The notes beneath the pieces are model-generated. The model made no database searches and was not told where the DNA came from. It saw nothing but the letters and a program-made list of their open reading frames with translations. 64,000 nt of DNA from Escherichia coli (GTDB lineage Bacteria > Pseudomonadota > Gammaproteobacteria > Enterobacterales > Enterobacteriaceae). The stretch lies in the NCBI RefSeq assembly GCF_003991155.1, contig NZ_CP031293.1; one strand, written 5' to 3'. Positions within the stretch are counted from its first letter, which is position 1. Each line of letters opens with the position of its first letter. The position numbers were made by a program, and so were the translations under genes. Below are positions 5,033 through 50,094 of the stretch, piece by piece.

Positions 5033-5878
5033 TTATGAAGGTAACACTCCCGGATAGTGTTTCGCAATAATCTCATTAAGTCTGTCAACCAGTTCTGGTT
5101 TCCTGAACGTGATGTGCGCGGAGCCCTTCTTAAAGTATCTGATGCTGAACATCTCATCTTCATAGTCCTCTTTACCCTGAACTGAGTGGATGTGATCATC
5201 CAGACGAATAGTGATGTTTTCCCGGTTGTCGGGGATCGGTTTGCCGCTGAACAGGTGTAGCATTCTTTCCAGATCGGCAAGTCGATCTGCCTGTTGCCCG
5301 GTGATAAGATGAAACCCCCACCGGTCCCACCTCACCAGGTTGTTGACGATAATTTTACTGCCAAATTTACAGGGCGAGTTGGTTTTGTAATCCCAGCCCA
5401 GTCCTCTGAAAACGTTGATCACCCCTCGCTCAAACACCTCATCCTTATTCTGGTGCAGTTGTTCAAATGTGCTCAGAATGTTCGCTTCATTGATTTTCGG
5501 AAAATTATCATATTCCAGTGACCGGTACCATGTATCACGGGCCTGTGCATCCATTAAGGAAAGCATCCCTGAACGTTGCATCAAGTTTCGCCAGATTTCA
5601 CGGTCAAGGTTCCGGGTGATGGCTTTCATTGCGGTTTCCGGTTTTTCCATCAGCCAGCAACCGCAGCGAAAATCCTGTTTCATCGCCCAGTCCAGGGCGG
5701 TTTTACCTCCAATACTTTCTGTCAGTACTGAGATTTCTGCCAGTTGCCGGATAAGTGTGTCGATTTGCAGCAGCGCACTCTTTCGTACAGCCAGAATGTG
5801 GCGGATACTGGTTGAGCAGATAACGTCCGTATGCCCGTTGACCAGTTCCGGGCGGGAGATTGTGATATCTGACATCAT
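5033..5878 (-). CDS. Conserved island-end protein, probably DUF4942 family
   Basis: 281-aa ORF at the integrase-distal island end downstream of the CbtA module; family assignment from memory. Confidence 0.55.
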   Translation of the reverse strand: MMSDITISRPELVNGHTDVICSTSIRHILAVRKSALLQIDTLIRQLAEISVLTESIGGKTALDWAMKQDFRCGCWLMEKPETAMKAITRNLDREIWRNLMQRSGMLSLMDAQARDTWYRSLEYDNFPKINEANILSTFEQLHQNKDEVFERGVINVFRGLGWDYKTNSPCKFGSKIIVNNLVRWDRWGFHLITGQQADRLADLERMLHLFSGKPIPDNRENITIRLDDHIHSVQGKEDYEDEMFSIRYFKKGSAHITFRKPELVDRLNEIIAKHYPGVLPS

Positions 5879-5890
5879 CGTTTTTCCTTT

Positions 5891-5930
5891 TGGTTTATAA
5901 ACGAAAACGCCAGCCCTGTTCAGGCTGGCG
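5891..5930 (-). terminator. Rho-independent terminator-like hairpin
   Basis: Stem CGCCAGCC/GGCTGGCG (5908-5930) followed on the minus strand by TTTTCGTTT. Confidence 0.5.
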
Positions 5931-5959
5931 TCAGTGGAATGAAGTCTGGTGAGTGAGAT

Positions 5960-6202
5960 TCACCGGTTCTGGTGCAGAAGCTGCAGTTGGCGCAGGGTAT
6001 GGATATCCTCCCTCGCCTGTTCAATACAGGACAACAGTGCTGCCGAATCCGTTTTATCCTCATTGTTGTCAAAGATAATTCCGGATTCGCAGTCGATATT
6101 GTCCTGCAGCCACGCAATCAGAATATCCAGTGCGGTTTCCGTGGTTAATGATTTCATGTTGCTCCTGGTTACCAGTTGAAAGTGGGTAAACCCGGCAGGC
6201 AT
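5960..6202 (-). CDS. Small YeeW-like protein
   Basis: 80-aa ORF (probable start at internal Met, ~6157) downstream of the cbtA-like toxin; resembles YeeW family. Confidence 0.4.
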   Translation of the reverse strand: MPAGFTHFQLVTRSNMKSLTTETALDILIAWLQDNIDCESGIIFDNNEDKTDSAALLSCIEQAREDIHTLRQLQLLHQNR

Positions 6203-6657
6203 TCAGCGCTGGCATCCAGATGAATGAGACTGACGCCATAACGTCGGGTAAGTGTGATAACCAGACGACGGAACGTTTTTGACAGCCCCAGGCGTTTAAG
6301 CCGCAGAACCGGATATGACCACGCATCGGTACGTAACAGATATCCGCTACCTGTGAAATGAATCCATTCTGATTCACCGAAGTCACTGGTCTGGTGTGAC
6401 AGCGAGTACAGCCAGGCGTTGTCCGTTTCCGTGATATGTGCGGTACTGCAGCGTATACCGGTCAGGGCAGCAAATGGTGGCATGCAGTCTGTTGAGGCCC
6501 GGTCAGATGCATCAACAACACGAAGGGAGTGGCCATTATCACAGACCACGTTAATCAGTTCAGCGAGATTAACACCATCGACGTCAACGACAATGCGTCC
6601 CATGTTCAGTGCCTGCACGTTAATGCTGTCGGCTTCCAGCGTCAGGGCCAGTTTCAT
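6169..6657 (-). CDS. Hypothetical protein, possibly DUF5983 family
   Basis: 162-aa ORF whose start overlaps the toxin stop (ATGA coupling). Confidence 0.5.
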
Positions 6658-7031
6658 TGTTTCGCCTCCGGATGTTTCCCCTGGGTAATGTTATTTACCG
6701 TTCTGTAGTTATCGCGGGTCATCAGGCCGGTTGCCCTGCGAGCCCGGAGAATATCAATACTGTTTATTAACTGAGAGCGGGTACAGGCGCTGAATCCCGG
6801 CTGGTCGGTACGTATCAGTGCGTATTTTTCAACGAGAAAGTTCACCGCATCACACAGTGAAATGCCAGCTTCAATATGCTGCTCAATCACACGTTCATCG
6901 GCGAACGGTGTGTCATTCAGTGTGAGGCCATAGTGCTGGTCCAGCAACCGGGACAGCAGTGTCTGCCAGATGGTGACGGGAGACGGGCAGCGAGATACCT
7001 CCCGTACATGTGTGTCGGATAATGTTTTCAT
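6654..7031 (-). CDS. Type IV toxin, CbtA/YeeV/YkfI family
   Basis: 125 aa; near-identical in long stretches to remembered YeeV (…[50 protein letters not shown]…). Confidence 0.85.
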
Positions 7032-7077
7032 CTTAAGTTCTCTGTAACTGGTAGTGCTAAAGGTGAGAGCTTCGGGG

Positions 7078-7452
7078 TTATGAGGTGGTTGCGGGTGCTG
7101 GTGTCGGATAAACAGTCAGATAAACGTAACCACAGGAGCCGAGGGTGTCGGCTTCGCAGGTCAGCCCTTTTGCATACAGCGTGACGGTATGCTGATGTCG
7201 GGGATTCAGTTCACCGCTGGTGAGCATGAGTTCCAGTTGTTTCATCAGCAGCGGAAAGGCCTGGTCCAGATGGTATGCATCTGCGTCGCTGAAGCGGCCT
7301 CTGATACCCGCGCGGTCGGCAAGGTAATGCAGGTGGTTACCCTCCTGCACCAGACGGGCGCCAAAACAGGGCCTCACTGTGCAGGGAAGCCCCCACCAGG
7401 GGCGGTCGTGATTGTCGTCGGGATGAGTTATCCCGGAGAGTTTGTCTGACAC
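7078..7452 (-). CDS. Type IV antitoxin, CbeA/YeeU/YfjZ family
   Basis: 124 aa; [43 protein letters not shown] matches YeeU. Confidence 0.85.
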
Positions 7453-7614
7453 GATAAAATCCTCTCTGAAAAGTGGTTAAGAATGGTTTAACGATGACAG
7501 GTCAGCCGGCGCGCTGACCGGTTTCGGTGAAGATGTATGCATTGATGAGAATGGCCTCATCCACAGCGGCGTCTGAGGTCATCTGGTCGTACTCGTTTCC
7601 CGGGTGACGGAACA

Positions 7615-7836
7615 TCAGTTCAGGGTGACACTCATCAGCCGGACATACGGGCCAAAACTGTCCTTACGGCGTTCTGCAAACACAGCCAGCACACCGGGAA
7701 TATCCTGCACTTCACGACCGGTATACGCTTCAGTGCCACCGTGCCAGCGGTACTTACCTGTGCAGAACGGAAAAAGACGGGATGCAGGATGCTGTTGGTG
7801 AATACGCATGGCTTCACCACGGGTGATGATTCTCAT
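7615..7836 (-). CDS. YeeT/YkfH-like protein (DUF987)
   Basis: 73-aa ORF in the conserved position between the RadC-like gene and the antitoxin. Confidence 0.55.
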   Translation of the reverse strand: MRIITRGEAMRIHQQHPASRLFPFCTGKYRWHGGTEAYTGREVQDIPGVLAVFAERRKDSFGPYVRLMSVTLN

Positions 7837-7898
7837 GATGTGATACCTCTGAAGACAGAAGATAAAAGTGAAAACAGGTGTGATGTGGTTGTGACGGG

Positions 7899-8375
7899 TT
7901 AAAGCAGACCATGTTCGGCAAAGGAGAATACCTGGCTGCCACCGACTATCAGATGGTCCGGCACCCGGATATCCACCAGGGCCAGCGCCTGAACCAGACG
8001 TTCCGTAATAAGCCGGTCTGCCTTACTGGGTGTGACTTCACCGGACGGATGATTGTGCGCCAGCACCACGGCAGCGGCATTGTGGTACAGGGCGCGTTTA
8101 ATCACCTCCCGGGGATGAACTTCCGTGCGGTTGATGGTGCCGGTGAAGAGGGTTTCACCGGCAATCAGCTGATTCTGGTTGTTCAGATACAGCACCCGGA
8201 ACTCTTCACGCTCCAGTCCCGCCATGTTCAGAATCAGCCATTCTCGTGCCGCACGGGTGGAGGTGAAGGCCACGCCGGGTTCATGAAGATGGCGGTCCAG
8301 GGTTTTCAGGGCCCGTTGAATGAGGCTGCGCTCACCGGGCGTCATTTCTCCGGGCAGAAAGGAAATCTGTTGCAT
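7899..8375 (-). CDS. RadC-like JAB-domain protein (YeeS/YfjY/YkfG family)
   Basis: 158 aa; HNHPSGEVTPSKADRLITERL matches the JAMM/RadC motif. Confidence 0.8.
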   Translation of the reverse strand: MQQISFLPGEMTPGERSLIQRALKTLDRHLHEPGVAFTSTRAAREWLILNMAGLEREEFRVLYLNNQNQLIAGETLFTGTINRTEVHPREVIKRALYHNAAAVVLAHNHPSGEVTPSKADRLITERLVQALALVDIRVPDHLIVGGSQVFSFAEHGLL

Positions 8376-8389
8376 TGTTCCGGCCCCTT

Positions 8390-8869
8390 TCAGTCAATGA
8401 TGCGCATAATGGCGCTGCATTCCGGATGCTGCAGGGCGTAATCCCGCAGCCGGTAATAATGGACCGTCATGGCATAACATTCCGTACGACAGGCATGATG
8501 GCTGTACGTCATCAGACAGGCGGCAATACCGGCAGCTTCCGGACTCATTTCAGCGCGGTTACCGTTCATGGCATTGAACAGTACCCATGTTTCGTCATCA
8601 TCGTCATCCGGTTCAGGTGCCATAAATGCGCCACCGTTGTTCAGGGTGTACAGATTCCAGATGCCCCCGCAGTAGTCTTCGCACAGACGGTCCATCCAGC
8701 CGAAGACACGGGGCTCCAGGGTCACCCACTGTGGAATGAGGCCAAAATGCTGCGGCCAGAAGCTGATACGTTGTTCATCAGGGACGGGAGTAGCAACCAG
8801 TTGGGGCTGGTTATTCCCTGGTGCTGTGGCTGAAGAAAGAGCAGTTGTGTTCTGAGAAACGATTTTCAT
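8390..8869 (-). CDS. Antirestriction protein, KlcA/ArdB-like (YfjX/YeeR-position)
   Basis: ORF 8390..8941 trimmed to Met25 (MKIVSQ...) with an upstream AAGGAT ribosome-binding site; acidic DDDDDE tract. Confidence 0.65.
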   Translation of the reverse strand: MKIVSQNTTALSSATAPGNNQPQLVATPVPDEQRISFWPQHFGLIPQWVTLEPRVFGWMDRLCEDYCGGIWNLYTLNNGGAFMAPEPDDDDDETWVLFNAMNGNRAEMSPEAAGIAACLMTYSHHACRTECYAMTVHYYRLRDYALQHPECSAIMRIID

Positions 8870-9134
8870 GAGTGAAATCCTTACAATGTGTATAAATGAG
8901 AGGAAATAAAGGCCGGGGGCTGACAACATCACGTTCATCACTGACCGTGAGACCCGGCAATATCAGGGATGAATGATATTCGGCTGAAATTCCGGACAGC
9001 CGTACGCGTAACCGTTCCGGTCACAGACGGATGGCCAGAAGATGCCATTGCCTGTACTCAGTCTGCACAGACTGAGTTCTCCGGGGCGTCGGGTGATTCT
9101 GGTGCCTGAATCACGCCTTCAGGGACAGATTGCA

Positions 9135-9953
9135 TCAGCGCAGGCTCTCCAGTAGCGTTTCTGCCATCACCCACAATGCGCGATTGAGCTTAATGTCGGT
9201 GTCGATGCTGTGAATGGCACGGGTGTGGATACGTTTTCCTCTGGCACTGCGACCGGAAATTCCGCCTTTCAGCATATTCTCCTGGATGGTCTGATAAGTA
9301 CTCCACAGGTCCTTACCGTAATCCTCCCGGCGTCGTGGCGTCAGAATGTCGGTAGTGGTGACGGGCTGATGTTCATCACCATAACGGTAAGTCAGCGCCG
9401 CCTGTGCCAGCGCCTGGCGTGCCGGTGGCGGCAGGACCAGCGACTGCATGGCATCACGCTTTTCCTCAATCCGGTCAAACACGCCCACCACTTCGTAAGC
9501 ACCTTCTATGACCCTGTCCACCACGTTTCCCCGGTGTGGCACCCGGACTTCTCCCAGCGACTGACCGCAGACCAGGCCATTGGTACAAATGGCACGAAAA
9601 TATCCGGGTAACATCTGGTAGCTGGATGAACCGTCATGGGAGTTGAGCAGAATAATTTCAGGCACATGCTGACCGGTTATCTGTCCGGCCCGCCGCAGAC
9701 GCAGCATATGTTTGGTATATTCCCGGCGGCTCTGGTCGCGCACACGGGTCTGGCAGGCGAAGAACGGCTGAAAGCCTTCCCGCTGCAGATTTTCCAGGAC
9801 GGTGATGGTGGGAATGTACGCATACCGTTCACTGCGGGAGGTGTGCCGGTCTTCTCCAAAAATACTCGGGACGTGGTACATCAGTTCTTCGCGTGTCAGT
9901 GGGCGCTCCCGACGGATCTGATTTACATGACCAAAACGACTGGCTAATTGCAT
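9135..9953 (-). CDS. DUF932-family protein (YfjQ-like)
   Basis: 272 aa; size, position and sequence resemble YfjQ of CP4-57. Confidence 0.65.
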   Translation of the reverse strand: MQLASRFGHVNQIRRERPLTREELMYHVPSIFGEDRHTSRSERYAYIPTITVLENLQREGFQPFFACQTRVRDQSRREYTKHMLRLRRAGQITGQHVPEIILLNSHDGSSSYQMLPGYFRAICTNGLVCGQSLGEVRVPHRGNVVDRVIEGAYEVVGVFDRIEEKRDAMQSLVLPPPARQALAQAALTYRYGDEHQPVTTTDILTPRRREDYGKDLWSTYQTIQENMLKGGISGRSARGKRIHTRAIHSIDTDIKLNRALWVMAETLLESLR

Positions 9954-9979
9954 ACTTTGCTCCTTATGAATGAATTAGC

Positions 9980-10021
9980 GGTATAAACGAAAAGGCCGCG
10001 TCTCCCGGAGAAGACGCGGCC
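9980..10021 (-). terminator. Rho-independent terminator-like hairpin
   Basis: Stem GGCCGCGTCT/AGACGCGGCC followed on the minus strand by TTTTCGTTTATA; same TATAAACGAAAA motif as the hairpin at 5891-5930. Confidence 0.5.
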
Positions 10022-10042
10022 TGATGGATGAAATGAAGACGT

Positions 10043-10276
10043 TTATTGCCTGAGAATTCCCTCACTGGCGAGGTACGAATTTAGCTGTTTTCCGGCGTCA
10101 GACTCAAAATTCCAGCACCGCCAGCGTAGTTGCCCTTCGGCATTGCGGATAACCAGCAGGAAATGCGTTCCATGGTCATCTTCAATAAGCACATTGCGGT
10201 AAGCTGTTGTGGCAGCCATTGCCTGTTTGCGTGAGAAAGGGCCTTCGGGCAATAAAACAGGGTGACAGTCCGACAT
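10043..10276 (-). CDS. Small hypothetical protein (77 aa)
   Basis: ORF sits in the operon-like minus-strand array and is followed by a terminator hairpin. Confidence 0.4.
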
Positions 10277-10281
10277 ACCGG

Positions 10282-10959
10282 CTATTTTCCGATAAATTCA
10301 ACGCTGGCACTGGTGGCATTACCGTCAGCACCAACCGTGACGGTCACTTTGTCGTACGCACGGTCTTCAGGATTGAATACTTCAAACTCAACCTTATTGC
10401 CTTTTACTTCGTAAGAGCCAAAATCAGCGGTTTCTGTTGTTTCCTCGTCATATTCCCGGGCGTATGCCTGCCGGGCAGCCTGCAGGACGGAGTCTTTATT
10501 AATAGTGGTCGTCTGTTTCGGGGAAAAACCGGCAAGTGATGTGACAAATTTCGGACAGACCTTCAGCATATCACCGCGGGTGAATTCCATTCGTACACCA
10601 AATGCCTGTAAAACGGACACATCACGCTCTGCTATGGAGTGAACGGCTTTTTTGACCATTTCCGGCGCCTGTCCGATTTCCACCTCAACAGCCCTGAATC
10701 CCGTCTGCTGATTACACATTTGTGATGTGGGGATCAGGTTACCGTTAATACTGATACGGCTGCCCAGGAGCGTCTGTACGCCATTCGGGCATCCCTGCAT
10801 CAGGCCGGTAATACCAATCGTGCCATTTTTCAGCATTACCAGCGCCTGACCATCTTCCGTCATGGTCTGACACCAGCCGTTTTTGACAGCCCAGTTGCCG
10901 GCGGAGGCGGAGAATGATGCCACAGTGAACAGCAGGGGAAAAAGAGCTCTGGTATTCAT
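10282..10959 (-). CDS. Secreted hypothetical protein (signal peptide, ~225 aa)
   Basis: ORF 10282..11064 trimmed to the internal Met preceding [20 protein letters not shown] (typical signal peptide). Confidence 0.5.
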
Positions 10960-11106
10960 GACTGACCTCTGAAATGAACGTACGGTGTTATTGATAATGA
11001 TGGAAGGTATGCAGTGACTGTTCAGGGAATGACGTAGCCGTATATTTAGTTTTCTGTTCAACATATTGTCTCCATACCTGTCGGGACGGCTTTGGCAGGC
11101 CGGCGA

Positions 11107-11787
11107 TCACAGGTTAAAGGTGTTGATAAGTTTATGGATGAAAGAGAAATGTGGCAGGGCGGAGATAAAACGCTCTTCAGCGACCAGACTGTGGATGTGG
11201 CCTCTCCGTTCAAACCGTTCTGATGTCAGGCTGACTGATTTGATATCTGCCAGAGGAAAGACCTGCAGTTTTCCCTTCTGTAACGCGATCAGATACCAGC
11301 TACCGCTGTAATAAATGAGCCGGCAGGGCTCCAGTGACGGATACCATCGCTCAGTCATCAGAGAGATGTGGATACACTGTCTTATTGCCAGGATGAGTTG
11401 CGAGAAACACTCGGGGAACGTTGCAGTGATATTCGGCGCCGGTAGCCAGATAAGGCAGGGAGAGGGCTCCTGGTTGTCGGTAAGACAGGTTATCAGTCGT
11501 CCGTTCCGGAGCGGAAGTATCCGTGCGATCCCGGTATTCTGTATAAAAGAAAGCATTTCAGGGATCGCACCTGGGCTGCTCTGTCGTCTGAGGCTGTACC
11601 TGCCATTTCTGTACTCTAAATCCAGGTGAACCAGACGCTGATGAAAATCGCGCTGTAAAGTACGTTCTGTAACGCCAAATTCATCTGACAGTGTTTTTAG
11701 TGACAGAGATTCTCCGGCCATCAGTCGGCTGATAATGAGTGATAAGCGAACCGCCAGGCGATCATGCCGGGAACGATTATCAGACAT
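11107..11787 (-). CDS. WYL-domain transcriptional regulator (YfjR-like, DeoR-type HTH)
   Basis: 226 aa; N-terminal HTH (LKTLSDEFGVTERTLQRDF); position next to the YfjP-like GTPase. Confidence 0.65.
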   Translation of the reverse strand: MSDNRSRHDRLAVRLSLIISRLMAGESLSLKTLSDEFGVTERTLQRDFHQRLVHLDLEYRNGRYSLRRQSSPGAIPEMLSFIQNTGIARILPLRNGRLITCLTDNQEPSPCLIWLPAPNITATFPECFSQLILAIRQCIHISLMTERWYPSLEPCRLIYYSGSWYLIALQKGKLQVFPLADIKSVSLTSERFERRGHIHSLVAEERFISALPHFSFIHKLINTFNL

Positions 11788-11989
11788 AGATGTGCACTCC
11801 GTAAGAAAACATCTTTTATTTCATGATGTTATTATGCCTCATGGTGTTGAAAGGATGTGTCGTATCTGAATAATCAGGAATAAAATGCAGCAGAAAAAAT
11901 ATTCCTTTAATTATCTGATTTTTAATGATGATTTCATAAAAAGAAGAATACTCATTAATCCAGCGACACATCCTGTCGGCGTGAGTGTG

Positions 11990-12874
11990 TCAGAACAGAC
12001 GATCCCACAGTGTTTCCAGCAGGCGGATAATGCGGTCCCGGGCTTTACGCAGAAGCTGTAACATCCAGACCGGAAAAGTGAACCGGGCAACGGCGTCGTC
12101 AAAACTTTTCCCGATGGCGTCACCAAAAGTCTGTTGTGCGTGTTTCTGGGCCTGTTCAGAGCGGTTTTCCCCCCGGATATGTGAATAAACCGCACTGGTT
12201 GCCTGCGGTGGCAGGGCGTGGATCATCAGCGACACAAACGCCGGAAGATTCCAGCCGACAGGCGCAGCAACGGGGAGTACCGGAAATGATGACGGGAACA
12301 GGGTTGCCACCCTGGCTGTAACAGTTGCCAGTGAGAGTTCCTGGTGACGGGATGGGCATTTTTCTGTGGCATTCCATTCTTCAGCAGGAAACACGCGATC
12401 GGCATGGCTGAGAACAAACAGAAAACGCGAGGGATCTGCACCTTCATTCAGTAAAAACTGATGCATGGCAATATCGGCAGCATACGCACGTTCATCAGCC
12501 CGCAGGATCCAGATAATCAGATCCAGTTCCGGCAGTAACTGACGGTAAAGCTCCCGGTATTCCTGATCATGCTGCGGTGTCTCACCAATGCCGGGCAGAT
12601 CGACCAGCGTCATTCTGCGTTCACCAATCTGCAGGGTGAGGCGATGAGCCTGGCGGGTGCAGCCGTTCAGGGGATGCGTGGCGCAGATACGGGACTGAAA
12701 AATGGCATTACACAGACTGCTTTTGCCGGAGCCGGATTTACCCATAATGCCAATCACGGGCTCGTAATGAATAACACCGTGGAGATGTTCAAGGATTTTC
12801 TGGCGAATTTCTTCAGGAAGAAACGTCAGATATGATTTCACTTGCGCGGAGAGGGAAGAATTGCTGAATGGCAT
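11990..12874 (-). CDS. YfjP/YkfA-like GTPase
   Basis: 294 aa; P-loop GIMGKSGSGKSS and DLPG motif. Confidence 0.8.
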   Translation of the reverse strand: MPFSNSSLSAQVKSYLTFLPEEIRQKILEHLHGVIHYEPVIGIMGKSGSGKSSLCNAIFQSRICATHPLNGCTRQAHRLTLQIGERRMTLVDLPGIGETPQHDQEYRELYRQLLPELDLIIWILRADERAYAADIAMHQFLLNEGADPSRFLFVLSHADRVFPAEEWNATEKCPSRHQELSLATVTARVATLFPSSFPVLPVAAPVGWNLPAFVSLMIHALPPQATSAVYSHIRGENRSEQAQKHAQQTFGDAIGKSFDDAVARFTFPVWMLQLLRKARDRIIRLLETLWDRLF

Positions 12875-12974
12875 ACCGGTATCCTGTTGATTTCACTGAA
12901 CCGGATCACACTAATCCGGTTTATCATTCAGGTAATATGGGTGTGAAAATTTTTCCATTGACGGGAAGAAGAGT

Positions 12975-14198
12975 ATGGCTAAAAACAAAGGTATCTGTCG
13001 GAATAAAAAATGCAGTAATCCTGTTTCAGAATTTGATGAGGCAAATGCCTTAAGGTTATGCGATGATCATTATAAGCTATGGAAGCGAAATAAAGAGAAT
13101 CGTCGGGTCAGGAATATTTGTCGTATAATTAGTAGATATGACAAAAGTCTGGACTGGGAGATATTTTATAGAGTAAGAGATGCTGCAAAAAATAAAACGG
13201 GAAAGAGAATTATTGAGGACGCAAAAATATTACATCAATGGCGTGCTTCAAAGCAAGTAAGAAAAAGTTTTCACAAGGGTGTGCTTCGGTCACGGGAATG
13301 GCTTAATACACAGGAGTTACTGAGCAGAAAACATATATCTGTTACAGGTGAACTATTTAAATTTTACATAAAAGATATTATCAGATTATATTGCTATAAG
13401 TTTCTCTACAGCAGAGAATATCTTAATGAAAACGCATACAAAAAACGATATCAGAGAGATATTCACCCCAGAAAAGTTAATGTTCCGATACTGCAACTTG
13501 AAGTTGCATGGATAAATAATAATTGCCGCTCAAGTGATTCAAGCACTGATATTATTATCCTTCCGAGGATGATAAGAAGAATGGTTGTATTTAATTATAC
13601 GAAGATAAATAAACAATTAGAGAAAGTGTTGGGGGGGATAGCACGAAAACAAACCTCAGAAAGGAATAAAGGCGGTCTCTATACCAGAATAAAAAAAGAA
13701 AGTGACTTTCTTTCTATGGATAGATTTATGGTGGAAATAGAAAATATCATAAGACCTGAAAGGTTTCCTACATCAATTTATCCAGTCTTTTCACATTCAT
13801 TTATTGAACGAGAGCTTCCGCTACTGAATCTTGCCCGATCACAGTATAAAAGAGCAATAAGTAAAAGAGTGGCGAATTCAATTTTTTATACTTTGCAAAA
13901 AACTAACGTGGCATTATGGCTATATCTTGAAATGTTTGCTCTGGTGGCATTCATTAAACTGTATACAGGAAAAGGTTTTGAATTCATAAAGAACATGTGT
14001 GTATTTATCGATTATGAGAAAGGGATAATAAAATCCACACATGAAGAACTGCTGGGTGAAATTAAGCGTAACATTCAAGTGAATTTGAAGGTGAATCCTG
14101 ATAATTTTCCAGAGTTAATAGACATATACAATTCATGCTTTAGTGAAAATATATTGTCATATGATATTCAGGATGGTAATTTTAAATGGCGCTCATGA
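12975..14198 (+). CDS. Orphan hypothetical protein, 407 aa, AT-rich, lysine/arginine-rich with N-terminal Cys/His cluster
   Basis: Long uninterrupted ORF in strongly AT-rich DNA, divergent from the GTPase gene; no family recognised. Confidence 0.6.
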   Translation: MAKNKGICRNKKCSNPVSEFDEANALRLCDDHYKLWKRNKENRRVRNICRIISRYDKSLDWEIFYRVRDAAKNKTGKRIIEDAKILHQWRASKQVRKSFHKGVLRSREWLNTQELLSRKHISVTGELFKFYIKDIIRLYCYKFLYSREYLNENAYKKRYQRDIHPRKVNVPILQLEVAWINNNCRSSDSSTDIIILPRMIRRMVVFNYTKINKQLEKVLGGIARKQTSERNKGGLYTRIKKESDFLSMDRFMVEIENIIRPERFPTSIYPVFSHSFIERELPLLNLARSQYKRAISKRVANSIFYTLQKTNVALWLYLEMFALVAFIKLYTGKGFEFIKNMCVFIDYEKGIIKSTHEELLGEIKRNIQVNLKVNPDNFPELIDIYNSCFSENILSYDIQDGNFKWRS

Positions 14199-15434
14199 TG
14201 TAAAAATATTAATTTCACATTACATATTAATTATTCACAAAAAACATATAATTAATTTCAATGAGTTACATATAAAAATGTTGATGATTAGCCAGCTTAG
14301 TATGGTTATGCAATGTGATGCTTAACGCTTACAGATAATAACACATTCATATGAGCTATATATCATAATATTCAATAATCATGATATGCTAATCTGATTA
14401 TGGATAAAAATTACTGAATGACGCCATATTATGATTGGCAGTGTTTCCTGTATACGATGACTTATCTCTCCCGCATCATATGGGGGCACGTTTCTTAGGA
14501 AAAGTGACGGGGTTACAGAAGCCAATTACGATAGTTTGTTGTAGAGTTATCACGAGTTTTTGTTGTTCTGAAGACGGAATCAAAAAAATAATTCCAGAGT
14601 AAACCTGTCTGTTTTTTGACCAGTAAAGATCCATGCTGGCCGTGAAAAACTGAAATCAACACTCAGTCTGCATGGATGTCTGAAGATATTGAGAATGTCG
14701 GGAATGGTACTATATACGTATTATACAGACATATCTTCACTAAGTGTTATACACGCATTTTCATAAACAATTCTACAAGTGTTTTCATTAAGCATTGCTG
14801 TACACATTGTTTGATCTGATACACATCCAGTTTAGTAAATCTTTACGTTAGCTAAAATCAGTTTAAAGCTGCTACAAAACAATTTTTCTTGTTTAAGTAA
14901 TCAGGATGATATTCTATTTTTCTGAAGTTACGTTTAACCTTTTCTTAGTTTTTGTGTTTTTAGTCGTTAACCTGAGACAAGTGTCTTTATGTAAAAACGC
15001 AAATCCGGCTGAGATAACCTGGCGTGATTTACTGTGTGCTTACGATGATTTTGTTAAATGGTTTTATGGATGATTTTGTAACGATGAGATTGATGAGATG
15101 ATTAACTGGCCCTGGTGTTTTTTCTCAGCGCAAGACTCTTTTCAGGAAAAGCGTGATGATTGGTTCTGGTGTTTTGATTCAGATGAGGTTTACGTTATCG
15201 ATGGTTAACCGTTTTTATGGAGCGTAGTTAAAAGTAACGTTTTCAGTATAAGAAAATCGATTCTGATGTTGGTGGTTTTTGTTCTTGGGGCGGGGGTGTC
15301 TGTAAACAGGTTTTAATCGCGCTGTTCGGCTCTGTGATTGAGTTGTGTGGTTAAGCTGTAGGTGTGGTGTGATCTTACACAGCAATAGTGGACACGCGGC
15401 TAAGTGAGTAAACTCTCAGTCAGAGGTGACTCAC

Positions 15435-15734
15435 ATGACAAAAACAGTATCAACCAGTAAAAAACCCCGTAAACAGCATTCGCCTGAATTTCGCAGTGAA
15501 GCCCTGAAGCTTGCTGAACGCATCGGTGTTACTGCCGCAGCCCGTGAACTCAGCCTGTATGAATCACAGCTCTACAACTGGCGCAGTAAACAGCAAAATC
15601 AGCAGACGTCTTCTGAACGTGAACTGGAGATGTCTACCGAGATTGCACGTCTCAAACGCCAGCTGGCAGAACGGGATGAAGAGCTGGCTATCCTCCAAAA
15701 GGCCGCGACATACTTCGCGAAGCGCCTGAAATGA
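15435..15734 (+). CDS. insE: IS3 transposase OrfA
   Basis: [29 protein letters not shown]... matches IS3 OrfA; ORF-track start 15426 is an upstream GTG. Confidence 0.85.
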
Positions 15735-16597
15735 AGTATGTCTTTATTGAAAAACATCAGGCTGAGTTCAGCATCAAAGCAATGTGCCGCGTGCTCCGGG
15801 TGGCCCGCAGCGGCTGGTATACGTGGTGTCAGCGGCGGACAAGGATAAGCACGCGTCAGCAGTTCCGCCAACACTGCGACAGCGTTGTCCTCGCGGCTTT
15901 TACCCGGTCAAAACAGCGTTACGGTGCCCCACGCCTGACGGATGAACTGCGTGCTCAGGGTTACCCCTTTAACGTAAAAACCGTGGCGGCAAGCCTGCGC
16001 CGTCAGGGACTGAGGGCAAAGGCCTCCCGGAAGTTCAGCCCGGTCAGCTACCGCGCACACGGCCTGCCTGTGTCAGAAAATCTGTTGGAGCAGGATTTTT
16101 ACGCCAGTGGCCCGAACCAGAAGTGGGCAGGAGACATCACGTACTTACGTACAGATGAAGGCTGGCTGTATCTGGCAGTGGTCATTGACCTGTGGTCACG
16201 TGCCGTTATTGGCTGGTCAATGTCGCCACGCATGACGGCGCAACTGGCCTGCGATGCCCTGCAGATGGCGCTGTGGCGGCGTAAGAGGCCCCGGAACGTT
16301 ATCGTTCACACGGACCGTGGAGGCCAGTACTGTTCAGCAGATTATCAGGCGCAACTGAAGCGGCATAATCTGCGTGGAAGTATGAGCGCAAAAGGTTGCT
16401 GCTACGATAATGCCTGCGTGGAAAGCTTCTTTCATTCGCTGAAAGTGGAATGTATCCATGGAGAACACTTTATCAGCCGGGAAATAATGCGGGTAACGGT
16501 GTTTAATTATATCGAATGTGATTACAATCGGTGGCGGCGGCACAGTTGGTGTGGCGGCCTCAGTCCGGAACAATTTGAAAACAAGAACCTCGCTTAG
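15731..16597 (+). CDS. insF: IS3 transposase OrfB (DDE integrase domain; made as OrfAB fusion by -1 frameshift)
   Basis: 288 aa with DDE motif region (…HTDRGGQY…CYDNA…). Confidence 0.85.
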
Positions 16598-16911
16598 GCC
16601 TGTGTCCATATTACGTGGGTAGGATCAGTGTTGCTGTTGATTTACAGCGCCAGAAAGCGTTCTGATTGCGTTTCTGACGTTTTGTTTGCGCGTTCTGTTG
16701 ATCCGTTTCCCTTCAGGCTTTGTAGTTTTTAAAAAACATTTATGCCGTTGTTGTGTGTTTTACTCTGCGTGTAGGTTTATTTTTTCTTCGTGGGGGATTC
16801 ATTCTGTTTTAATCAGGAGCCATTGGCGTTGCTCAATGGCGGGATGCCGTAAAGTTTTACCGCAGTGATTAATGATGTGAAGTCAATCCAAATCAACGGA
16901 GATCTCTCATC

Positions 16912-17643
16912 ATGAATCAACCAATACACAATGCTTACTGGTTATCCCGTTTTGAAAGTATTCTCAACAGTGCCCTGGCGCAACACCGTGCCGTCTCGTT
17001 AATCCGGGTGGATTTACGTTTCCCTGAGTATATGCCTGTCACCATCATGGATCCCGATCCGGATTCAGCGGTGATTTCCCGTTTTTTCGCATCCCTGAAA
17101 GCCAAAATTCAGGCTTACCAGCGGAAAAAAAGATGGGCCAATCAGCGTGTGCATGCAACCAGCCTGCGTTATTTCTGGTGCCGGGAGTTCGGCAAGATGT
17201 ATGGCAGGAAACATTATCACGTGATATTACTGCTCAACAAAGATACCTGGTGCTCGCTCGGGGATTTCAGCGAACCGTCTTCGCTGGCGACGATGATCCA
17301 GGAGGCATGGTGCAGCGCCCTGCATCTTGAGCCCTGGCAAGGCGATGGCCTGGTCCATTTTTCCAGGTGGACGCCTTCCCGTAAACCGACATCGTCTGAT
17401 GCTCGCCCTTCTTCCGATGACACGCCTTTGTCGGGTGGATGTTCTGATACCAGGAAGGCTTCAGACAAAAAGCCAGGTGAAGCCGCTGTGCTCTGGATCA
17501 AGCGTGGTGATGTGGAAGCGCTGCAGAAAGCCCGGAACAGAGCCAGTTATCTCGTGAAATATGAGACGAAGCAGCATGACGGTTCCGGGCAACGTAATTA
17601 TGGTTGCAGTCGTGGGCCGGGGCGTCTACTGGATGGCAGGTGA
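16912..17643 (+). CDS. YagK/YfjJ-family protein (inovirus Gp2-like domain)
   Basis: 243 aa; …SLIRVDLRFPEY… and …HYHVILLL… motifs typical of the family. Confidence 0.55.
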   Translation: MNQPIHNAYWLSRFESILNSALAQHRAVSLIRVDLRFPEYMPVTIMDPDPDSAVISRFFASLKAKIQAYQRKKRWANQRVHATSLRYFWCREFGKMYGRKHYHVILLLNKDTWCSLGDFSEPSSLATMIQEAWCSALHLEPWQGDGLVHFSRWTPSRKPTSSDARPSSDDTPLSGGCSDTRKASDKKPGEAAVLWIKRGDVEALQKARNRASYLVKYETKQHDGSGQRNYGCSRGPGRLLDGR

Positions 17644-23462: not shown

Positions 23463-23900
23463 GATTATGCAACTGCCTGTTCGGTTTTTCGTCAGCGATC
23501 ATCAAAGTAAATAGCTTCGTTTTTCCCGGTGAACGTGAAGCTAGGGGAGATTATACTTCCGGATGTTCATTCAGGGCAGAAGAATAATACATCAGTTAAT
23601 TTTCTGTTAGTACTTTGTAGTCGAATGTTTGGGGAGTGTGTCTGAATGACAGCCAGATGGAATGACTTTTTGTAGCCAGGTCATGACTACGACTCATACG
23701 CTATTCTTAATTCTTATTTCTTTCCATTATACGCAAGTATTTTTAATTTAGGTTTATTACTATAATTATATTCACTTTGTCTTTATTCACTCTGTTTTTA
23801 CTTACTCTCTATCTTTACTCATTCCATTACTCTGACCCTCACCCGATTATACTTACTCCCTTCCTTGTCTAATCTTCATTGCCACCATTATCATGGTATC

Positions 23901-23927
23901 CACCTTCTCCACCTTCTCCACCTTCTC
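23901..23927. repeat. Tandem repeat 3 x CACCTTCTC inside a ~200-bp polypyrimidine (CT-rich) tract
   Basis: Direct reading of sequence. Confidence 0.6.
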
Positions 23928-24762
23928 CTTCATTCAATCATAACTACTGTAATTCATACGATACTCAGATAAGTTATTTTACTACGTTGTTGCTAATATC
24001 TACCTGTTATCAGTCTTCACTGAAACAGCAATTGATTTTAGTCATTATCCATAATGAACTGTATTGACTTAACGATGATTGTTGTTGACCTGAAGTGTTT
24101 TAACTATTCTGGTAAATATCAATACTTCTGTCATCACTGATTAACTGGATGTTTACTCTTTGATAAGGTATCCATGATTTCGTCATGTTTAACAGCGCAG
24201 GATAAACAATGAAATTAACAGAGTGAATTCCTGATTATATTTGTTCGTTTCTGATTATCTTGTATGTTAAACAAAATGAAAATTATCCATCCATGGTATA
24301 TTTTATTCTGGTACCGTGTACCCGTTAACGCTCATGTTTTGAAGTGAGTTGTTTTTAACAGATTAAATGAGAGTGTATGATTTTATCAGGTTACAGATAT
24401 GTGTTGGCCTTGTACACGTTTTTGCAGACTCACTGAGAGCAAGTTTGTAGTTTATGATGTGATTGGTCGCAATATGTTTCTTAATCTCCAGGTAGTGGGG
24501 TTTTAGCTCGTATTTTACAGTATTTCGTGATGTTTTATTGAGTCTGTATTTTCTTTACTCCTCGTTTATCTCATCTCTTTAGCTAATACCATCAGATAAT
24601 CCATTTCTTTCTGCATAATGCTGCGTATCGTTAATAACCCGTCGTATCCATTCTGCTACAGCATGCCTGATAAATACCATCTGTAAGTTATTACCGTTAT
24701 GAGCGAAAGCATTAATTCGTTCACAGAGCTTAAAACATCATTAACTTTCAGGAGTCATCAAC

Positions 24763-25329
24763 ATGCCTAAATCTTACACACCAAACTGGTTTTTTACCGC
24801 TTTACTTGACAATCACATCAATCAAATGCTGGCACGTTATTCCTGCCTGCGAGCTTTACGGATGGATTTCTTCTACAGGAAAGATACGCCTGATTTCTTA
24901 CAACCTGATCATCGCTGGCTTGAATTGCAGTTGCGTATGATGCTGGAACAGGTTGAACAATTTGAAAATATCGTTGGCTTCTTCTGGGTGATTGAATGGA
25001 CGGCTGATCATGGTTTTCATGCGCATGCGGTTTTCTGGATCGATCGTCAGAGGGTTAAAAAAATATATCCCTTTGCGGAGCGGATTACGGAATGCTGGCG
25101 GTCTATTACGCATAACAGCGGTTCGGTACATCGCTGTACATATCAGCCGCATTATACATACAACATCAACATTCCTGTGCGCCACAACGATCCTGAAAGC
25201 ATCAATAATATTCGCGGTGCCCTGCATTATCTGGCGAAAGAAGAGCAAAAAGACGGGTTGTGTGCCTACGGCTGCAATGAAGTTCCTGAACGTCCTGCTG
25301 CAGGGCGTCCTCGTAAGCCTCACTTCTGA
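24763..25329 (+). CDS. YagK/YfjJ-family protein (paralog)
   Basis: 188 aa; …LRALRMDFFYRKD… motif; upstream region similar to that of the 16912 gene. Confidence 0.5.
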   Translation: MPKSYTPNWFFTALLDNHINQMLARYSCLRALRMDFFYRKDTPDFLQPDHRWLELQLRMMLEQVEQFENIVGFFWVIEWTADHGFHAHAVFWIDRQRVKKIYPFAERITECWRSITHNSGSVHRCTYQPHYTYNINIPVRHNDPESINNIRGALHYLAKEEQKDGLCAYGCNEVPERPAAGRPRKPHF

Positions 25330-49998: not shown

Positions 49999-50023
49999 TT
50001 GGCGGAAGATCACAGGAGTCGAA
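49999..50023. repeat. attL core: 25-bp direct repeat overlapping the 3' end of selC
   Basis: Identical to 4873..4897. Confidence 0.8.
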
Positions 50024-50094
50024 CCTGCCCGGGACCGCTGGCGGCCCCAACTGGATTTGAAGTCCAGCCGCCTCACCGGAGACGACGATCTTCC
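50000..50094 (-). tRNA. selC: tRNA-Sec (selenocysteine tRNA)
   Basis: Reverse complement matches the 95-nt E. coli selC sequence GGAAGATCGTCGTCTCCGGTGAGGCGGCTGGACTTCAAATCCAGTTGGGGCCGCCAGCGGTCCCGGGCAGGTTCGACTCCTGTGATCTTCCGCCA. Confidence 0.95.

Follow-up and report, generated by a model that had tools for sequence, protein, structure and literature searches.

Background

The endonucleases of the HUH type that are best compared with the present case, RepB of plasmid pMV158, Rep of adeno-associated virus (AAV), NS1 of parvoviruses and Rep of geminiviruses, recognise short tandem repeats beside the nick site, and many HUH nick sites lie in or beside a hairpin or an inverted repeat. In Ff phages the intergenic region (IG) holds the nick site of gpII together with repeats bound by gpII. 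The subject of this study is a stretch of 1171 nt (positions 14199–15369) in a window of 64 kb, the window being the whole piece of Escherichia coli chromosome that was analysed (64,000 nt), which carries a large CP4-57-like integrative island at selC. The stretch is located upstream of a gene of the YagK/YfjJ "inovirus Gp2 family", predicted to encode an HUH endonuclease, and had earlier been described from its letters alone (hereafter the sequence-only reading) as AT-rich non-coding DNA with iteron-like direct repeats, possibly a regulatory region, a degenerate replication or packaging site of an ancestral element or an untranslated RNA locus.

The comparisons given below show that the stretch is very probably a non-coding cis-acting region that forms a module with the nuclease gene. 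The region as originally noticed is ordinary: it is rich in A+T, codes for nothing, and the repeats pointed out in it are not conserved. It is its context that gives a modest lead on DNA processing by the island. Islands of the CP4-57 type carry CbtA/YeeU toxin-antitoxin pairs, antirestriction genes, RadC and a variable cargo of defence or virulence genes, and the module with its motif, repeat array and HUH gene offers a concrete candidate for their cis-acting site. It also accounts for a recurrent unannotated gap of 1–1.9 kb, within which the small minus-strand "hypothetical proteins" are doubtful. No description of the module or the motif was found in the searchable literature, including a full-text search for sequence strings of the region; a preprint lists a Gp2-like gene among the likely core functions of a related class of islands and assigns no role to it (bioRxiv 10.1101/2024.08.29.610337).

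A conserved module upstream of the nuclease gene

The stretch begins one base past the stop codon of a 407-aa open reading frame (ORF; 12975–14198, plus strand) and stops immediately short of IS3, whose left inverted repeat starts at 15370, so that position 15369, taken as the end of the unit in the sequence-only reading, is an insertion junction and no natural boundary. The natural unit is an intergenic region of 1452 bp (14199–15369 together with 16631–16911) that ends at the 243-aa nuclease gene, and the stretch is the distal two-thirds of this non-coding region, recently divided by IS3. The target duplication of the element is the 3-bp GTG at 15367–15369 and 16628–16630, and alleles without the element are continuous across the site in strain UTI89 (L003; L numbers denote the compared loci), in CFT073 (L002) and in a metagenomic locus (L022). 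Of 5426 complete E. coli genomes only 21 have this junction, and the insertion is therefore regarded as recent and specific to a lineage. The features of the region from the module rightward are as follows.

14567–14603, plus strand: left edge of the module, with the motif ATAATTCCAGAGTA (14588–14601)
14689–14718, plus strand: candidate sigma-70 promoter, TTGAGA, spacer of 17–18 nt, TATAC(G/A), pointing into the repeat array
about 14700–14830, plus strand: direct-repeat array of AAG(T/C)(A/G)TT with interleaved ATACAC(G/A)T, about 150 nt to the right of the motif
15370–16627, plus strand: IS3, complete element of 1258 bp within the intergenic region
16631–16911, plus strand: remaining intergenic part, with the inverted repeat GCCATTG-N8-CAATGGC (16819–16840), the palindrome GTAAAGTTTTAC (16849–16860) and a GGAG ribosome-binding site
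16912–17643, plus strand: YagK/YfjJ "inovirus Gp2 family" gene, 243 aa, predicted HUH endonuclease

A search of the same 5426 genomes revealed at least part of the stretch in 1850 of them, at 2454 places and in up to 7 copies per genome. The first 386 nt (14199–14584) co-occur only with the 407-aa gene, and alleles that lack this gene share no sequence leftward of about 14567. From about 14567–14585 rightward extends a module of about 1066 bp, to which the right-hand 785 nt of the stretch belong, and in plasmids, as in all the uninterrupted E. coli loci examined, this module immediately precedes the Gp2-family gene, whatever is located to its left. It is split by an inserted gene in L015, where the insert is a 177-aa gene free of insertion sequences, and in L021. 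Alignment against related islands, suggested in the sequence-only reading as a check for simple decay, consequently gave conservation, with the module upstream of the same gene throughout. The regions of yfjJ and yagK in strain K-12 showed no DNA similarity to the module, so the transcript maps of K-12 are not transferable. A protein search of genome contigs with the nuclease returned only two loci, and a single "phage" match was set aside as an unverified contig of low coverage.

The motif ATAATTCCAGAGTA is found with no more than one mismatch in every E. coli allele, and the 14-mer is identical in a Klebsiella plasmid (L018; 20/21 by BLAST) whose nuclease is 40% identical; it is the sole detectable similarity to the 2.1-kb upstream gap of this plasmid lineage. 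Counterparts with two or three mismatches occur in Providencia (ATAACTCCAGAGTT) and Brenneria (ATAACTCCAGACTT), matches which are individually weak; one chance match with two mismatches was met in L024 and a 12-mer control was not significant overall. This weakness does not extend to the identity with Klebsiella. The motif is always on the strand of the nuclease gene (plus), at a distance of 250–350 bp from it in compact relatives and of 1.07–1.7 kb in E. coli and Klebsiella. A 16-mer search of viral contigs gave 22 matches, none of them near a Gp2 gene, and these were judged to be due to chance.

In the window allele the array holds three copies of AAG(T/C)(A/G)TT, starting at 14742, 14777 and 14790, and ATACAC-type units resembling DnaA boxes at 14721–14729, 14747–14755 and 14817–14825. 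The array is present in every allele with 3–7 copies, against 0.1–0.3 expected, its copy number shifts by units of 12–13 nt and of about 25 nt, and no other cluster of this kind occurs in the 64-kb window or in any of the related loci. The three DnaA-like 9-mers on the plus strand (14721, 14747, 14817) have one mismatch each, none being perfect; they form the densest cluster in the window, over which the total number of such 9-mers equals that in shuffled sequence. The 60 bp before the ATG (16849–16908) are near-invariant among 19 alleles, with 4–7 variable columns per 40 (p from 3e-8 to 9e-6), and are the only clearly constrained segment in the column-variation test. Signs of constraint are thus seen in three elements, namely the motif ATAAYTCCAGAGT, the repeat array and the segment of 60 bp that precedes the ATG. 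A regulatory region or replication site, as proposed in the sequence-only reading, survives because the module and a 14-nt motif shared across genera are conserved, and a downstream gene of the HUH rolling-circle type makes it more plausible.

This assignment of the gene rests on several agreeing lines. The 243-aa protein matches PF11726 (6e-36) and PF23343, REP_ORF2-G2P (5.5e-9), in Pfam, and among 23 homologues, including YfjJ and YagK of K-12, the residues H101 and H103 (KHYHVILLL) and Y213 and K216 (YLVK) are near-invariant, while a Foldseek search returned the same families, weakly (E about 0.01). As Pfam, invariant motifs and fold agree, the gene is assigned to the HUH endonucleases. The window holds a second YagK/YfjJ paralogue (24763–25329), and this too has a long gene-free region upstream (1.3 kb, 35% G+C; window 23463–25329). 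The region contains an array of its own, TTCACT/TACTC at 23766–23873, which precedes the gene by about 0.9–1.0 kb; TCCACCTTC is also found there at 23899–23925, repeated three times in tandem without a mismatch. The layout is thus the same, and the motifs differ from those of the array at 14700–14830. A paralogue with its own, different array suggests that array and protein vary together.

Comparison with described origins

One close parallel is with the rolling-circle origins of HUH proteins (nic/bind of pMV158 RepB, the Rep-binding element and terminal resolution site of AAV, the ACCA repeats of NS1, the iterons of geminiviruses), as the region adjoins an HUH gene and its setting is AT-rich. 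The predicted fold of the nuclease matches just the origin-binding domains of RepB, AAV Rep, NS1 and geminivirus Rep, and a cluster of short repeats is, likewise, separated by about 150 nt from a conserved motif that is asymmetric and occurs once. Unlike in those origins the repeats are imperfect and variable in number, the site is about 1 kb from the gene, and the host element is an integrated island rather than a plasmid or a virus.

As in the IG of Ff-type phages, a non-coding region of at least 0.5 kb is located directly upstream of an "inovirus Gp2" gene (PF11726, PF23343). The IG of these phages consists of five strong hairpins (packaging signal, minus and plus origins), whereas folding here is, on both strands, at or below the level of shuffled sequence, and no other genes of filamentous phages are found in the window. 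A further parallel is the RP4-type arrangement in which the origin of transfer (oriT) lies between the relaxase and the leading-region operons, since the ancestral HUH operon likewise diverges from a block of antirestriction, DUF932, RadC and toxin-antitoxin genes (plasmid leading regions are reviewed in PMC11541004). In contrast to an oriT there is no conserved similarity to a known nic site, an F-like GGTGTGGTG occurring in the window allele only, and no inverted repeat beside the motif, and the island protein is Rep-like and outside the known MOB families of relaxases. Theta origins (pSC101, P1, F) share direct repeats, DnaA-box-like sequences and AT-rich DNA near an initiator-like gene, but their repeats are of 17–22 nt and their RepA is a winged-helix protein, while here the repeats have a 7-nt core, the DnaA boxes are imperfect and the gene is of the HUH type.

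Possible functions of the module

The explanation that we tentatively prefer, and would put somewhat short of an even chance, is that the HUH protein of the island itself acts on the motif and the array, which would together form a nic-like site with a tandem-repeat "bind" locus. The excised island could then be nicked there and pass into rolling-circle replication or single-strand transfer, and the same region would also act as promoter and operator of the nuclease(-AlpA) operon. What suggests it is that proteins of the same fold bind tandem repeats, that the motif is asymmetric, single-copy and fixed in orientation, and that the paralogue has its own array. The more specific proposal that ATAAYTCCAGAGT and the array constitute a cis-acting origin (rolling-circle or oriT), nicked by the YagK/YfjJ protein after excision driven by AlpA and Int, is rather unlikely; if true, it would explain the wide spread through the Enterobacterales of "cryptic prophage" islands that have no capsid or conjugation genes.

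A number of observations weigh against such a target. An HUH protein does not need a site upstream of its gene, since the origin can sit inside the rep gene itself (phiX174, P2), and the motif is found anywhere between 250 and 1700 bp from the gene. The hairpin or inverted repeat found at many HUH nick sites has no counterpart at the putative nick site, as none is conserved beside the motif and local folds differ between lineages; nor is there a structured single-strand origin, folding with DNA parameters (200-nt windows, both strands) giving z from -1.9 to +1.8. No part of the module varies more than the array, and because AAGYRTT was defined after inspection of the data its enrichment, large as it is, is not an independent test. 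Another motif, GTGT(T/C)(T/A)T, seemed to be shared across genera and enriched in the inspected loci, and was dropped when it failed in the held-out loci L025, L018 and L014. Identity of the module to the window allele is 79–92%, against 86–94% at four-fold degenerate sites of the adjacent gene. Finally, the nuclease gene is frameshifted or truncated in L017 (1517–2346) and L006 (3598–4305) with the upstream module retained; such broken copies indicate that part of the family is decaying in E. coli. An apparent excess of conservation in L017 was traced to its frameshifted pseudogene and disregarded.

Purely transcriptional control with no nicking is possible though doubtful. The module would in that case serve the nuclease(-AlpA) operon as an extended upstream and 5' leader sequence, derived from a divergent promoter region that separated the two core operons of the island, with array and motif as operators for an AlpA-type or a WYL/helix-turn-helix regulator or as a nucleation zone for H-NS silencing. 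The homologous gap in distant relatives is a divergent region of 0.4–0.75 kb that must hold both promoters, the near-invariant 60 bp before the ATG include a palindrome, the 5' half of the motif resembles a -10 hexamer (AATAAT, GATAAT or GATAAC), and an AlpA-family gene follows the nuclease gene in relatives. Horizontally acquired AT-rich DNA is bound by H-NS, as would be expected of this region with its 25–37% G+C. The promoter search called for in the sequence-only reading gave a divided answer: a scan with position weight matrices found the sigma-70 candidate upstream of the array in 14 of 14 alleles, a weak one since its -10 box lacks the final T and the promoter scan did not call it, while that scan gave promoter-like sites of the region at no more than the level of shuffles and none within the module. 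Against transcriptional control also stand the absence of a conserved -35 element upstream of the motif, where alleles diverge, and a single-copy, asymmetric 14-mer of fixed orientation, which is unusual for the operator of a dimeric regulator. The module is moreover retained where the adjacent AlpA gene is lost (window, UTI89), and it contains no terminators that could explain a regulated leader of 1 kb. That the region is mostly functionless spacer, generated by indels and slippage, with the repeats as slippage products and only the proximal ~100 bp, beyond the stretch itself, of importance, is unlikely as a full account even though most of the stretch is AT-rich spacer drifting at an approximately neutral rate. 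Divergence equals or exceeds that of synonymous sites, 51.5% of the columns vary among 19 distinct alleles with only 16849–16908 clearly constrained, and indels and changes in copy number are frequent. The region tolerates IS3, the 177-aa gene in L015 and further rearrangements, 0.4 kb is enough in relatives, and the sequence is less structured than its shuffles. Without selection, however, one would hardly expect a 14-mer to be preserved in the Klebsiella lineage beside a nuclease of only 40% identity. The array, the only one in 64 kb, has also been kept by all alleles through its turnover, and the paralogous locus repeats the architecture with a different motif. The terms "degenerate" and "ancestral" of the sequence-only reading are half right in view of the near-neutral drift of most of the stretch.

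Coding status, RNA and the originally noted repeats

The G+C content of the stretch is about one-third overall, 0.28–0.43 in windows of 300 nt compared with about 0.5 in the flanking core genes, and the plus strand turns strongly T- and G-rich rightward. The longest ORFs inside it are of 47–60 aa and none keeps position and frame across 14 alleles, which are separated by indels of 4, 7, 11 and 20 nt. Substitutions show no 3-nt periodicity in any 150-nt window, Pfam gave no real match to six-frame translations, the four frames poorest in stops included (a lone match with E=0.025 is under the family cutoff), proteins from neighbouring slots in related islands gave no tblastn match, and no annotated homologue underlies the match positions in the 1850 genomes save unrelated small minus-strand ORFs. 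The sequence-only reading was accordingly right in calling the stretch AT-rich and non-coding and in finding no credible ORF. It is barely conceivable that the stretch is the remnant of a decayed protein-coding gene: one plus-strand frame has 13 stops against about 23 expected, and some alleles read through a Trp/Cys-rich peptide (WRDLLCAYDDF...WPWCFF...WFWCFD), UTI89 having an 89-aa ORF there, yet stops and frame-breaking indels vary by allele and the searches just given speak against it. This frame, protein-like in the window allele, was rejected as it is broken differently in other alleles, and so was a small ORF at 15098–15208; the stops differ by allele, indels of 4 and 20 nt break the frames, and periodicity is absent.

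An RNA locus, either a small RNA or a structured leader, is highly improbable. The gene-free region is long, 120-nt windows with a folding z below -2.5 occur once per strand, and one possible compensatory pair is seen in a hairpin at 14951–15003. The covariance-model search gave, however, no match in Rfam 15 at E <=1 for window positions 12000–17000, and for the intact UTI89 allele (E <=5) only two chance matches to eukaryotic families, far below the gathering score. The 2 of 68 windows that pass in RNA-parameter folding are close to chance, the DNA-parameter folding was blank, 14800–15350 folds less well than shuffled sequence, no inverted repeat or stem of at least 6 bp is common to all alleles, and the module has no terminator. 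The pathogen-specific (non-K-12) small RNAs PapR and C271 of UTI89 were considered and rejected, since their primer and probe sequences match neither the window nor any of the loci. The suggestion of an untranslated RNA locus thus gained no support from these searches.

The repeats on which the sequence-only reading was built lie to the right of the array:

15097–15128, plus strand: repeat 1 (GATGATTAACTGGCCCTGGTGTTTTTTCTCAG), in a segment of average variability
15155–15182, plus strand: repeat 2 (GATGATTGGTTCTGGTGTTTTGATTCAG), within the moderately conserved block 15148–15207

The pair is real, TGGCCCTGGTGTTTTTTCTCAG (15107–15128) and TGGTTCTGGTGTTTTGATTCAG (15161–15182) being identical at 17 of 22 positions with a spacing of 54 nt, and each copy is preceded by GATGATT, at 15097 and 15155. 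These are 58 nt apart and not the approximately 65 bp reported. The recurrence of GATGAT-type motifs was correctly seen, GATGATT occurring four times (15044, 15069, 15097, 15155) against 0.11 expected. As iterons the repeats do less well, as 8.7% of dinucleotide shuffles of the 1171 nt yield an equal or better 22-nt pair within 120 nt, and Tandem Repeats Finder detected no tandem array in the stretch. GATGATT is missing from 5 of 14 alleles, where repeat 1 reads CATTAACGATTCCTGACGTTTT, and a 20-nt indel between the repeats shifts their spacing from 58 to 77–84 nt; the window allele is without the 20-nt segment (AGGTAATTCTCTTCATCATG or variants), which 10 of the 14 alleles carry at 15132/15133. 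With GATGATT lost in five alleles and a spacing of 58–84 nt, the repeats are not conserved as a pair. An iteron-type (theta) origin or a packaging site built on GATGATT...CTGGTGTTTT is largely refuted by this comparison of alleles and hardly credible. Repeat 2 does lie in the block 15148–15207 (9–10 variable columns per 40, where 51.5% vary overall; p about 2e-4, which correction for multiple testing makes borderline), and three DnaA-like 9-mers with one mismatch are located 300–400 nt to the left. There are two copies only, however, the DnaA-like boxes are all imperfect, and the initiator-like gene nearby encodes an HUH protein, with no gene for a winged-helix initiator of the RepA type. The GATGATT...CTGGTGTTTT repeats are not the functional ones; the array that is conserved differs in motif and is located 350 nt to their left.

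Genomic context of the region

The tRNA-SeC gene is located at 50000–50094, with setC, yicL and nlpA to the left. On the left of the region follows a leftward block of the kind usual in CP4-57-like islands, with genes for a GTPase, a WYL/helix-turn-helix regulator, DUF932, antirestriction, RadC, YeeU/CbtA and DUF4942. The antirestriction, DUF932, RadC, YeeU/CbtA and DUF4942 genes form a leftward operon (5033–12874, minus strand) that diverges from the HUH-nuclease gene; its content resembles that of plasmid leading regions and the layout is as in arrangements centred on an oriT. The compact relatives (Providencia, Morganellaceae, Brenneria and one E. coli plasmid) show the corresponding leftward block (DUF932, antirestriction, GTPase and a family of about 320 aa) facing the HUH gene and AlpA, with 0.4–0.75 kb of AT-rich DNA (25–37% G+C) in between, and in Klebsiella plasmids the same layout has a gap of 1.7–2.1 kb. 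Because compact relatives share this layout, the E. coli region is best viewed as an expanded divergent intergenic region into which cargo such as the 407-aa ORF has been inserted.

The 407-aa gene is an AT-rich orphan (31–36% G+C) and gave no match in Pfam, NCBIfam or PADLOC. Its slot is occupied in CFT073-type islands by a 376-aa gene, the product of which has a Cys/His-rich N-terminus similar to that of the 407-aa product, and in other islands by a minus-strand gene of 262–339 aa (the ~320-aa family), so the slot between the GTPase and nuclease genes looks like a cargo hot spot. The 262–339-aa family has no Pfam match, its members are related by blastp at E from 1e-8 to 1e-70, and in many relatives it is divergent from the HUH gene; it appears to be a further core gene of the island family that is replaced by the 407-aa gene in the window. 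Members are located as follows.

L018, 874–1842
L004, 545–1564
L019, 2425–3378
L005, 961–1749
L025, 2634–3593
L027, 2284–3255

The Prokaryotic Genome Annotation Pipeline (PGAP) places small minus-strand "hypothetical proteins" of 52–82 aa over the area of the IS3 target, equivalent to about 15300–16720 of the window:

L004, 3071–3253, minus strand
L005, 3088–3261, minus strand
L006, 3230–3403, minus strand
L007, 3105–3353, minus strand
L002, 6637–6795, minus strand

These ORFs are of low complexity, have starts and stops that vary by allele and are missing from the allele group of the window, and they are probably spurious calls. The IS3 target itself (15361–15369) reads GGTGTGGTG in the window allele and GGTTTTGGTG in the others. 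The former is what we take to be the core of the nic site of the F plasmid, a likeness probably due to chance since it is confined to the window allele.

Two features lie outside the module, at the left end of the stretch:

14199–14566, plus strand: allele-specific 3' flank of the 407-aa gene, homologous only in L003, L015, L022 and L023
14468–14486: terminator-like hairpin (CTCCCGCATCATATGGGGG with a T-rich tail), 270 nt past the stop codon of the 407-aa gene

The hairpin is the sole terminator-like site in the region and may terminate transcription of the 407-aa gene.

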